IMG/VR virus record: IMGVR_UViG_2684622543_000010
Length of the DNA: 8,410 nucleotides
Source of the DNA: a virus
Lineage: Duplodnaviria; Heunggongvirae; Uroviricota; Caudoviricetes
Strand: one strand, 5' to 3'
The notes below the pieces were generated by a model that was not told where the DNA came from, made no database searches, and saw only the letters and a list, made by a program, of their open reading frames with translations. The translations under genes and the position numbers were made by a program. Below are positions 5,336 to 8,410 of the stretch, piece by piece (position 1 is the stretch's first letter; the number at the start of each line of letters is the position of its first letter).

Positions 5336-5556
5336 CAAGCACCCCATTCAGAAATAAGCTTAATTCCCTGCTCAAGCTGTTCAGGGTCGTTATAGTCGAG
5401 TATTACCAGTGGCTTTAATTCGTGTTTAAGCTGGTGGATTTGAGAGGGTTTTAATCGTTTGTTTGCTTTGAGGGTCACATCTTCAAATTCAGCATCTGCT
5501 AAATTCTGTCTGATTAGGTGGCGGCCAAGTGTGGAATATTGGAACCTATAACACAT
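5335..5556 (-). CDS. Hypothetical protein (73 aa)
   Basis: ATG at 5556 overlaps the TAA stop of the upstream ORF (TAATG), with GGAGG just upstream. No recognisable family. Confidence 0.55.
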   Translation of the reverse strand: MCYRFQYSTLGRHLIRQNLADAEFEDVTLKANKRLKPSQIHQLKHELKPLVILDYNDPEQLEQGIKLISEWGA

Positions 5557-5846
5557 TAAACCTCCAATCTATCCGCCAGTTGATGGACCTTAGCGCTTAA
5601 CACCTGAATCATTGAGCAACCTGCTACTGCGGACTGTGCTTTGAGTAGTTCCAGTTGGCCCGTTGTGATTCTGATGGCCTTAGAACCCTCTGCGACGCCC
5701 TTAACGTTATCGAAAGGGCTAAGGTTTACCGACTCTTTTAAAATCTCCCCAACAAGCGCTGTGTGCTTCATATCGGGATATTTGGCTTTGATTGCTGCCA
5801 GTCGTTCAAATGCCTCTGGCAAAAGGCGCGTAACTGTGTGAGTCAT
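5556..5846 (-). CDS. Candidate ribbon-helix-helix (CopG/Arc-like) DNA-binding protein, 96 aa; first gene of the small-gene operon
   Basis: ATG at 5846 (MTHTVTRLLPEAFERLAAIKAKY...) with GGAG 9 nt upstream; the track start at 5876 lacks an RBS. N-terminus has a beta-strand-then-helix pattern (TVTRLLPEAFERLAAI) typical of RHH regulators; a second similar segment follows (AIRITTGQLELLKAQ). Pattern-based inference only. Confidence 0.5.
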   Translation of the reverse strand: MTHTVTRLLPEAFERLAAIKAKYPDMKHTALVGEILKESVNLSPFDNVKGVAEGSKAIRITTGQLELLKAQSAVAGCSMIQVLSAKVHQLADRLEV

Positions 5847-5876
5847 TGTAAAAATCTCCTTAAATCTCTTACTCAT

Positions 5877-6466: not shown

Positions 6467-7221
6467 TAAAACATTCCTCCACCATAAACACGTCTGACTT
6501 TAACTTTTTCTTTCTTTGGCTCGGTGTGAGTTTTCTTTTTTGGTGTAAAAGTAAAATCATCGTCACTATCATCAAAGTCATCGAGGTCACTAACCTTGTT
6601 CTTTAGCTTCGCATTTCTGAATCTTTCTTTAATTTCTGCTTTACGCTGTTCACGTTTNNNNNNNNNNNNNNNNNNNNNNNNNNNNNNNNNNNNNNNNNNN
6701 NNNNNNNNNNNNNNNNNNNNNNNNNNNNNNNNNNNNNNNNNNNNNNNNNNNNNNNNNNNNNNNNNNNNNNNNNNNNNNNNNNNNNNNNNNNNNNNNNNNN
6801 NNNNNNNNNNNNNNNNNNNNNNNNNNNNNNNNNNNNNNNNNNNNNNNNNNNNNNNNNNNNNNNNNNNNNNNNNNNNNNNNNNNNNNNNNNNNNNNNNNNN
6901 NNNNNNNNNNNNNNNNNNNNGCTCTGTTAAAACCTCCGGTACTTCATCAAGTGAATAAACTTTAATAACACACTGATTGCTTGCAACGTTAGTTTTCTTG
7001 ATTAAACCATGTGCCTCAAGTTGTTTCATACATGCAATCACGGATGTTCTTGTGATTCCAGCATACTGACCAAGATGAGCATATGAAGGGGTATAATATT
7101 GCCCCTTATCGTGATAAAACTTTTGTTCATTCAACATGACAGTGTAAATAATACGGTCGGCAGCTTTAACGCCATTAGTCATCTGATAAATACGGTCATC
7201 AAACATGTGGAATTTTTCCAT
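6466..7221 (-). CDS. Replication-initiator / replisome-organizer-like winged-HTH protein (about 251 aa as given), interrupted by an N-run
   Basis: ATG at 7221 (MEKFHMFDDRIY...) with AAGGAA 7 nt upstream; the track's upstream extension is rejected. N-terminal ~100 aa has the helix-turn-helix pattern of phage O-type / DnaD-type initiators (RIIYTVMLNEQ...YYTPSYAHLGQYAGITRTSVIACMKQLEAHGLIKK). C-terminus is highly charged (KKK..., DLDDFDDSDDDF). The middle of the protein is unknown because of the N-run. Confidence 0.55.
   Translation of the reverse strand: MEKFHMFDDRIYQMTNGVKAADRIIYTVMLNEQKFYHDKGQYYTPSYAHLGQYAGITRTSVIACMKQLEAHGLIKKTNVASNQCVIKVYSLDEVPEVLTEXXXXXXXXXXXXXXXXXXXXXXXXXXXXXXXXXXXXXXXXXXXXXXXXXXXXXXXXXXXXXXXXXXXXXXXXXXXXXXXXXXXXXXXXKREQRKAEIKERFRNAKLKNKVSDLDDFDDSDDDFTFTPKKKTHTEPKKEKVKVRRVYGGGMF
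6658..6920. other. Run of 263 N (assembly gap or masked sequence) inside the replication-initiator-like CDS
   Basis: Seen directly. Flanking coding segments are in the same reading frame across the run as given, so the N-run may replace real sequence of about this length; its content cannot be assessed. Confidence 0.95.
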
Positions 7222-7603: not shown

Positions 7604-8266
7604 TTAGCTCAACCTTTGAGCAATCCTGTATGACGTGCTCAGAGGCATTCTGAGAGCATCTGCAATGCACTTAATGGGTTTTCCTTGCCTGTATAGTTTT
7701 ATGAAGCTGTCGAGCGTCTCAGGTGGGTAAATGGTGGGTCTTCCTCTCAAGCCTCCTCTGTTAATGATGGTTAACGGTAATAGCGTGTCACCACAGCAAA
7801 CCGTCTGTGTAATTTCGTGCTTACGTGGTTCTTTTTTAAAAACAACGACTGCACTAGGAAACGGTGAACGAATAGTAAGCCCGTTATGGCCTGCTGGTGG
7901 AAGGTATTTAACTGCACGATGAAGAATACGGATTTCATGACAGTGGTTATTGCTGTAAATGTGCCTAAGCCAGTAGCTGGTGTTGGCTCTATGCGGTATC
8001 AGGAAAGCTACTAAATCCGCTTCAGACGCTTTTAAGAGGAACGACGGAATATCGCTGTACGGCAGGTTACAGAAGACCTTTTCACTAACCCATGATTGAC
8101 GGCTTATATCATTGGTGAATCGTGGTAACAGCGTGTCATGCTCAGTTGCAGCACCATCTAGCGTAAAACCAAATTCACGGTGTAAGTTCTTAAATAACAA
8201 CAATGGAGTTCTCCAGTAATCAGAACCCCCATGATGTTTCCCGATTAAAATATGCTCAATTGACAT
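7604..8266 (-). CDS. Phage Dam-family (T1/HP1-type) N6-adenine DNA methyltransferase homolog with a C-terminal resolvase-type helix-turn-helix extension (220 aa)
   Basis: Family hallmarks in order: DYWRTP, FTLDGAAT, a catalytic-motif position reading NLPYS (canonical is NPPYS), and SPFPSAVVVF. The C-terminal ~60 aa (RGGLRGRPTIYPPETLDSFIKLYRQGKPIKCIADALRMPLSTSYRIAQRLS) resembles the GRP-linker plus HTH of serine recombinases (Hin/resolvase type). No SD upstream of ATG 8266 (AT-rich leader). Motifs recalled from memory, not searched. Confidence 0.8.
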   Translation of the reverse strand: MSIEHILIGKHHGGSDYWRTPLLLFKNLHREFGFTLDGAATEHDTLLPRFTNDISRQSWVSEKVFCNLPYSDIPSFLLKASEADLVAFLIPHRANTSYWLRHIYSNNHCHEIRILHRAVKYLPPAGHNGLTIRSPFPSAVVVFKKEPRKHEITQTVCCGDTLLPLTIINRGGLRGRPTIYPPETLDSFIKLYRQGKPIKCIADALRMPLSTSYRIAQRLS

Positions 8267-8296
8267 AAGAAATAAAAAATTTTATTGCAATCACTC

Positions 8297-8323
8297 TTGA
8301 CAAGGTTTACTCTCTTTTAAGAT
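8297..8323 (+). promoter_or_regulatory. Candidate sigma70-type promoter reading rightward out of the window, overlapping the left arm of the inverted repeat
   Basis: Perfect -35 TTGACA (8297-8302), 15-bp spacer, -10 TAAGAT (8318-8323). The spacer is short, so this is weak evidence. Confidence 0.2.
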
Positions 8324-8389
8324 AAGAGATACTTAACAGGCTTTCTAAACGGATATCCTTTCTGGAATATCTATCTCTTATCTTAAAAG
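8314..8389. repeat. 18-bp perfect inverted repeat (CTTTTAAGATAAGAGATA / TATCTCTTATCTTAAAAG) with a 40-bp spacer containing the palindrome GGATATCC
   Basis: Seen directly: arms at 8314-8331 and 8372-8389 are exact reverse complements; spacer 8332-8371 contains GGATATCC (8351-8358) flanked by two CTTTCT copies. Lies 48-123 bp upstream of the methylase-HTH start codon. Confidence 0.85.
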
Positions 8390-8410
8390 TCTTTACAGAT
8401 ACTTTAAAGA

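Follow-up and report, generated by a model that had tools for sequence, protein, structure and literature searches.

Does a long, perfect inverted repeat beside a methylase gene mark a site at which something acts? The repeat in question lies near the right end of the stretch of DNA analyzed here (the window; 8,410 nucleotides, IMG/VR virus record IMGVR_UViG_2684622543_000010), where a repeat search found two arms, at 8314 to 8331 (CTTTTAAGATAAGAGATA) and 8372 to 8389 (TATCTCTTATCTTAAAAG), complementary at 18 of 18 positions across a spacer of 40 nt. These are exactly the coordinates at which a sequence-only reading had placed an 18-bp perfect repeat, and its view that the repeat is far longer than chance also holds; when the window was shuffled 60 times with dinucleotide content preserved, perfect inverted repeats with spacers of up to 100 nt reached maxima of 8 to 12 nt, compared to the 18 nt observed. 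With up to three mismatches allowed, 0.02 matches to the 18-mer were expected and two were found, both of them the arms themselves. The spacer sequence GGATATCC (8351 to 8358) and a TTGACA box (8297 to 8302) are likewise present as described; the former is centered at 8354.5 and the repeat at 8351.5, so the two are not concentric.

We conclude that the 18-bp symmetry, in its perfect form, arose by recent mutation in one clonal lineage and is not an evolved operator. On the sequence evidence, function resides in the conserved control block around it, the core of which is a small covarying hairpin. We read the region, with moderate confidence, as a structured regulatory RNA or a leader element within the control region of an island of ~11.5 kb that carries a serine integrase.

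The island and its methylase gene

Over 1,110 nt, the window matches Shigella sonnei chromosomes (L004 to L011) at 100% identity, and the whole of it makes up most of an island of ~11.5 kb (L003, ~1000 to 12700; also L001, L002, and L004). From right to left, the island consists of an att-like palindrome, an optional small serine-recombinase cassette, ~450 bp of noncoding DNA with the repeat, the methylase-HTH gene, a lambda-O-like initiator gene, about six small unknown genes, a tape-measure gene, a "baseplate" gene, and a large serine recombinase. Its only operon reads leftward and includes the methylase-HTH, initiator, tape-measure, and baseplate genes, with the repeat block at its head. 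The island is integrated at a minimum of three chromosomal sites (yciI-tonB, yecE, and beside rutG), and 214 of 5,426 complete E. coli genomes (~4%) carry its methylase gene. A megablast search of a phage collection gave no match to the island. A methylase-based search for the locus in 185k species-representative genomes and in IMG/VR found none, and thus the family seems confined to Escherichia and Shigella. We found no capsid or terminase genes and no recognizable repressor in the island, and because all of these are missing, it has the look of a phage satellite or a reduced prophage. A search of the literature turned up no description of this island type, and, to judge from sequence, it looks like an undescribed, phage-satellite-like family.

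Several features of the island were noted along the way. A run of N in the window (6658 to 6920) corresponds to 7389 to 7531 of L004, where the O-like initiator gene contains a lambda-type origin: four copies of the iteron TTACYCAsTsAGTCAA, spaced 22 bp apart, and after them a tract rich in A+T in which TAATAACAA is repeated. A replication origin of this type at the inverted repeat was therefore ruled out, since the iterons and the A+T-rich tract are inside that gene. To the right of the window, two unrelated small serine-recombinase cassettes replace one another after a shared breakpoint (...GCCAAATATCA). One encodes a leftward, Hin/Mpi-like protein of 183 aa and the other a rightward protein of 189 to 191 aa, and (A)TGTGACC repeats bound both (L001, 10200 to 10930; L004, 4900 to 5660; L012, 1 to 520). 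Near the 5′ end of the leftward cassette is a hix-like palindrome, GTCTCAAAAGG-AAGT-CCTTTTAAGAC, and in L012, a methylase gene and repeat of the S. sonnei type are combined with the other cassette. At the right end of the island, adjoining the chromosomal flank, is the palindrome CCTGT(A/T)AT(T/A)AACAGG (L001, 11336; L002, 11294; L004, 4611), which probably belongs to the site where the large serine recombinase attaches the island. Just inside it are several TGCATAG and TATATAG repeats, together with leftward matches to a TATAGT-type promoter.

The island appears to be decaying in S. sonnei. In some S. sonnei genomes, IS1 separates the methylase and initiator genes (L009, 6948 to 7645), and in L008 (6664 to 8053), the initiator open reading frame (ORF) is no longer called. 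The window also encodes, on the minus strand (5556 to 5876), a 106-aa protein without a hit in Pfam or PHROGs, the N-terminal pattern of which (…HTVTRLLPEAFERLAAIKAK…) resembles ribbon-helix-helix by eye; it could be an unrecognized regulator of the island.

The methylase gene, the first of the leftward operon (7604 to 8266, minus strand), encodes a Dam-family N6-adenine methylase (PF05869; E = 1.4e-14). As had been surmised from the sequence, the enzyme ends in an HTH, preceded by a GRP arm (~7607 to 7759, the last ~50 residues). Its best matches, to the resolvase domain HTH_7 (E = 1.9e-4) and to HTH_23 (E = 5.6e-4), both fall below Pfam cutoffs. The GRP arm and recognition helix are nearly invariant across clades. 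In PADLOC, the methylase receives no label beyond that of an orphan methyltransferase. In what we call type A, the group to which the window belongs, the start codon (8264 to 8266, minus strand) is without a Shine-Dalgarno sequence (…TTTTTTATTTCTTATG; window 8240 to 8290), and in the diverged clade, GAGGGG is found upstream of a GTG start. The type-A methylase may be translated weakly, or its translation may be coupled to some upstream element.

The perfect repeat is young and specific to S. sonnei

The left arm is 18 nt in the window but 13 nt (CTTTTAAGAGATA) in its relatives; five bases are missing from it in L001, L002, and every other relative examined (CTTTTAAG^AGATA). Matches to the region in E. 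coli span 166 nt, not 171 nt, in 114 of 114 genomes. The short arm is found in 33 of 36 type-A sequences, and the long arm only in the window and in L004 and L012, both of which are copies of the S. sonnei type. In a neighbor-joining tree built from the methylase gene, with types B and C (the diverged ones) as the root, the long form falls deep among short forms, next to L018 and L002. Because of this nesting, the five bases must have been gained in the S. sonnei lineage.

The gain can be written either as an insertion of ATAAG or as a second copy of TAAGA (TTT-TAAGA-TAAGA-GATA), and the resulting tandem TAAGA-TAAGA lies at 8318 to 8327, one of its units being the S. sonnei-specific addition that perfects the repeat. 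The gained ATAAG/TAAGA is the exact complement of CTTAT/TCTTA, which is otherwise bulged in the right arm. The ancestral outer repeat had 13 pairs and a 5-nt bulge, and its longest perfect run, 9 bp, is inside the range of the shuffles. The short form of the left-arm region also has a local 14-bp palindrome of its own, TCTCTT-TT-AAGAGA, which the 5-nt gain destroyed. The right arm is itself polymorphic; among relatives, it reads TATCT[C/T]TTATC, with 12 C and 23 T (22 TATCTTTTATCTTAAAAG and 1 TATCTTTTATTTTAAAAG), and one further C variant that ends in AAAAA brings the count to 13 C and 23 T. The C-to-T change in most relatives is not compensated in the left arm. The 18/18 repeat is thus a young, S. 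sonnei-specific feature, an older imperfect palindrome that was recently perfected. Since islands of the same gene order do not have the 18-bp symmetry, the idea of an operator, as it had been put forward for the repeat, is weakened; the sequence-only reading had itself named such an absence as grounds for refutation.

That the inserted bases are dictated by the opposite arm is a signature of quasipalindrome template switching or of slippage. An imperfect repeat is present in the related sequences, and the added bases, complementing the opposite arm, raised its complementarity to 18 of 18. The mechanism itself is inferred only, because an exact tandem duplication of TAAGA by plain slippage would yield the identical product. 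In either case, the 18-bp repeat is a clean natural case of a quasipalindrome perfected and fixed in a clonal pathogen.

The structural effect predicted for the change is large. In predicted RNA ensembles, the outer helix has a probability of 0.97 to 1.0 in the S. sonnei form, compared to 0 to 0.07 in the E. coli forms; the fold z-scores are -3.98 and -2.31, respectively, and, with DNA parameters, the hairpin has an energy of -14.5 kcal/mol in the former and -8.4 kcal/mol in the latter. In the S. sonnei lineage, moreover, a G has become A on the 3′ side of the inner hairpin (window 8364 to 8371; GGGATATC to GGAATATC), which weakens that hairpin from -11.4 to -6.6 kcal/mol, concurrent with the strengthening of the outer helix. 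From the sequence, we predict that the 5-nt gain would lock the domain into a single long hairpin. It would also add half a helical turn to the promoter-proximal spacing and place a TAAGAT box 15 nt 3′ of TTGACA. The gain is probably neutral or degenerative in an already decaying island.

The new box bears on a rightward promoter that the sequence-only reading had suspected at the left arm. A consensus match is indeed there, TTGACA (8297 to 8302, plus strand) followed after 15 nt by TAAGAT (8318 to 8323), but the latter was created by the 5-nt gain, so that the candidate exists only in the S. sonnei lineage. A second candidate, from consensus scoring only, reads leftward, with a -35-like TTTAAA box at 8403 to 8408 (minus strand) and, in TTTAAA-17-TAAGAT spacing, a -10 formed by the TAAGAT that the complement of the right arm carries (8380 to 8385); its predicted start is at ~8373. 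Strict promoter and terminator scans found no convincing promoter at the repeat, the candidates coming from relaxed scoring, and in the common, short form, no promoter near the repeat reaches strong consensus.

The conserved block and its inner hairpin

If the perfection of the arms is recent, what surrounds them is not evolving freely. Upstream of the methylase-HTH gene is an ORF-less block of ~200 bp in total, of which the window contains 8267 to 8410. Past the right arm, a second palindrome (TACAGATA-N9-TATCTGTA, plus strand) starts at 8394 and is cut by the window end at 8410; in L004, it is followed by CTGTACAG and then by TTTTCAGAATCTGAAAA with TTTTT, the end of the conserved block. Across 28 type-A islands, identity in the first ~200 nt upstream is 96 to 98%, compared to 90% for the methylase gene and 86.6% for its third codon positions, and identity falls to 55 to 80% right after the TTTTCAGAnTCTGAAAA hairpin and TTTTT. 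The ~200-bp block is therefore more constrained than the neighboring gene. In our view it outweighs the repeat, being better conserved than the gene beside it and standing at the head of the one operon of an uncharacterized island without a recognizable repressor. The block is without a start codon, which rules out both a small ORF there and an extension of the methylase at its N terminus; a cluster of Dam sites was ruled out as well, with zero GATC in the 520-nt control region.

Within the block, the inner hairpin (8351 to 8371, plus strand) consists of GGATATCC, a TTTCT loop, and GGAATATC. In E. coli relatives, it reads GATATCC-TTTCTG-GGATATC (-11.4 kcal/mol). In the diverged clade (type B), the methylase of which is 64 to 69% identical in protein, ACACTC-TTTCTG-GAGTGT is found at the equal position and register, with an identical loop. 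Between types A and B, three of seven pairs of the inner stem are changed on both sides, and the helix is paired in 99% of cells. Type C has an unrelated hairpin at the equivalent place, ACTACCT-24 nt-AGGTAGT. The CTTAACAG motif (8332 to 8339, plus strand) is kept in all three types of upstream region and, in the diverged clade, is predicted to pair with a downstream CTGTTAAG. TTAAGAG-like boxes flank the hairpin in types A, B, and C, inverted in type A and direct in type B. The possibility that types B and C are inversions of each other was ruled out. Nor did the hairpin type covary with neighboring protein sets; L014 and L015/L016 share type B and differ in gene sets. We infer that selection preserves the inner hairpin with its UUUCUG loop and the flanking CTTAACAG and TTAAGAG, not the 18-bp arms. 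However conspicuous, a perfect repeat seen in one genome can be more recent, and carry less meaning, than the modest hairpin that it encloses.

In the diverged islands, as much as 1.6 kb to the right of the methylase gene is free of ORFs (L013, 3164 to 4750; L015, 3171 to 4880; also the upstream regions of L050 to L064 and L068). The stretch is assembled from hairpin modules that reassort and show compensatory changes; it also contains C(UUCG)G loops, the CU-rich CUCUUCCUCCCGUUAAAC, and the extended -10 box TGGTAAGAT, and it has no match in Rfam. It may be a long structured noncoding RNA.

Function of the control region and known parallels

The most likely reading of the control region is one of RNA or structure, and an operator is a serious rival to it. 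We propose that the region acts at the RNA level, as the 5′ stem-loop domain of a short rightward transcript (plus strand of the window) that would end at the TTTTCAGAnTCTGAAAA-U5 hairpin; alternatively, it may be a leader element that controls expression of the island genes. For the diverged clade, RNAalifold gave a nested consensus of 36 pairs, including a long-range CUUAACAG/CUGUUAAG helix. Compensatory change is seen in 3 of 7 pairs of the inner helix and in 12 of 36 pairs in the diverged clade that are changed on both sides yet still paired. Alternative hairpin modules of this clade have C(UUCG)G caps, readable as such on the plus strand only, and an extended -10 box (TGGTAAGAT) lies upstream of the structure. 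Consensus folds favor the plus over the minus strand in both clades (-17.4 versus -11.5 and -31.2 versus -26.2 kcal/mol), a preference that is moderate only. In type A, the block ends in a hairpin and U-run that look like a terminator on the plus strand only, and in a natural hybrid, L054, a type-C 5′ domain is joined directly to the TTTTCAGAnTCTGAAAA hairpin.

Other observations count against a role as RNA. The promoter candidates are weak, as is the terminator-like hairpin at the block end (-4.2 kcal/mol); the compensatory changes trace to few module swaps between types, and so to few independent events; and palindromic protein sites would covary likewise. Single substitutions inside type A divide 3:2 in their compatibility with the plus versus the minus strand. 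A search of Rfam 15, including the C4/CI-type immunity RNAs, gave nothing at gathering score and only chance-level matches at E values up to 5, so the predicted RNA has no independent precedent there. Given the leftward promoter-like site near the right end of the island, the region could also be a long leader of the leftward operon. More specifically, and only as a tentative suggestion, the repeat region might be the 5′ domain of an undescribed RNA without an Rfam relative that serves as a control or immunity element of an undescribed island family. If so, the S. sonnei allele would be a natural mutation that locks an RNA structure. For the explanation as a whole, with a young perfected repeat, a constrained block, and a function at the RNA level, we consider the chances of being right or wrong to be about equal.

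The rival that deserves most attention makes the arms, or the TTAAGAG and TCTTAAAAG boxes within them, a cluster of DNA sites for a resolvase-type HTH. The binder would be the C-terminal domain of the methylase, in an autoregulation like that of SsoII/Ecl18kI-type methyltransferases, or the neighboring small serine recombinase, and the overlapping promoters would be repressed. The methylase is a fusion to an HTH, as for known operators of this class, and its GRP arm and HTH, with the weak match to HTH_7, align with the DNA-binding domain of the neighboring invertase. CTTTTnAGA is enriched in L001 (19 matches versus 7.6 expected) and clusters both in the control region and beside the invertase of the L001 type, where it makes up a hix-like palindrome. 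The -10 of the best candidate for a leftward promoter is inside the right arm, and TTAAGAG-type boxes are found around the hairpin in all three types. What still speaks for the earlier proposal of an HTH binding site is the shared boxes and the resolvase-like HTH; the proposal is weakened in that the recognition helix is invariant across clades and yet the inner palindrome and most of the arms differ by type, leaving the short TTAAGAG boxes alone in common. The 18-bp symmetry is missing from all relatives, the boxes change from inverted in type A to direct in type B, and, in types B and C, the predicted fold makes them opposite strands of RNA helices in which changes are compensated. In addition, the hairpin type tracks no neighboring protein set, and the HTH_7 score is under the Pfam cutoff, with no solved relative of known DNA site found. 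A sequence search of the PDB with the HTH domain returned only an uncharacterized two-HTH protein, and for that reason no known site can be transferred to the methylase HTH. On balance, we consider an operator cluster unlikely. Less likely again is that only promoter elements matter, each arm being a -10-like TAAGAT box and the symmetry itself functionless. The ancestral leftward TTTAAA-17-TAAGAT would then serve the methylase operon, and the S. sonnei duplication would have made the facing TTGACA-15-TAAGAT by accident. The relaxed promoter scoring, the derived nature of the left-arm TAAGAT, and the decay of the island in S. sonnei (IS1 in L009 and the lost rep ORF call in L008) all fit. These are consensus matches alone, however; none of them came up in the stricter scan, 15 nt is a poor spacing for sigma-70, and the compensatory conservation of the inner hairpin and the 98% identity over 200 bp are left unexplained.

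A crossover or inversion site for the small serine recombinase, or the terminal repeats of a miniature mobile element, both of which had been raised for this repeat, we consider very improbable. A small resolvase or invertase gene does lie 300 to 450 bp to the right in many islands, and the outer 9 nt of each arm resemble hix-like half-sites. These motifs face outward, though, across the 40 bp between the arms (58 bp between the half-site-like ends) and without a 2-bp core between them, and L013, L015, and L016, islands devoid of a small recombinase, retain the region. Only one orientation of the spacer was seen in 114 genomes and 36 sequences, which speaks against inversion. The miniature mobile element can be ruled out, because the unit is single-copy (a median of one place and a maximum of two per E. 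coli genome) and always island-linked, beside the methylase gene in 114 E. coli genomes; the dispersed copies expected of terminal repeats are absent, and among the loci examined, the 18-mer occurs at the arms only. The repeat is not an intrinsic terminator either, as the sequence-only reading had already judged, because no U-tract follows it 3′ on either strand; its stem is A+T rich.

We return to the conserved block as the element that matters, under either an RNA or an operator reading. If it encodes a regulatory RNA or an array of operators, it would give a handle on how the island is silenced and on its inducer. The more interesting leads are the uncharacterized island and its unannotated structured noncoding region. 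The kinds of elements involved are known ones, a stem-loop or operator region that regulates a mobile element combined with a textbook-style quasipalindrome correction, and the comparison can be made for each.

The P4 CI RNA and the C4 antisense family of P1/P7 are regulatory RNAs of phage satellites and prophages. As in those systems, a short structured noncoding element heads the replication or early operon of an integrated element, and no protein repressor is evident. Unlike those RNAs, the region described here has no match in Rfam, and it is predicted to run divergently from the operon or antisense to it. Crossover sites of Hin and Gin consist of two ~12-bp inverted half-sites around a 2-bp core, ~26 bp in all, and are found in both orientations among genomes; neither that geometry nor a second orientation was found here. 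With an A-tract and TCT-type half-site sequences (TCTTAAAAG), the repeat resembles the half-sites of the hix-like palindrome by the invertase of sister islands. It differs in that the half-sites face outward, inversion was not observed, and the region is retained even where the recombinase is missing.

The SsoII and Ecl18kI methyltransferases are C5-cytosine enzymes of restriction-modification systems, with an N-terminal HTH and an intergenic operator of ~15 bp (PMC2760811, PMC3978073). The likeness to these is in the fusion of a methyltransferase to an HTH and in a palindrome that lies in the adjoining noncoding DNA and overlaps candidate promoters. In contrast to them, the enzyme here is an orphan of the Dam family with a C-terminal, resolvase-like HTH, no restriction gene accompanies it, and the long symmetry is not conserved. 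For the symmetry itself, the closest parallel is quasipalindrome template-switch mutation, established in E. coli with thyA and lacZ reporters (PMC7202029). As in those mutations, an imperfect repeat was perfected by a short insertion dictated by the other arm; unlike the reporter mutations, the change described here is a natural polymorphism that became fixed in one clonal lineage.
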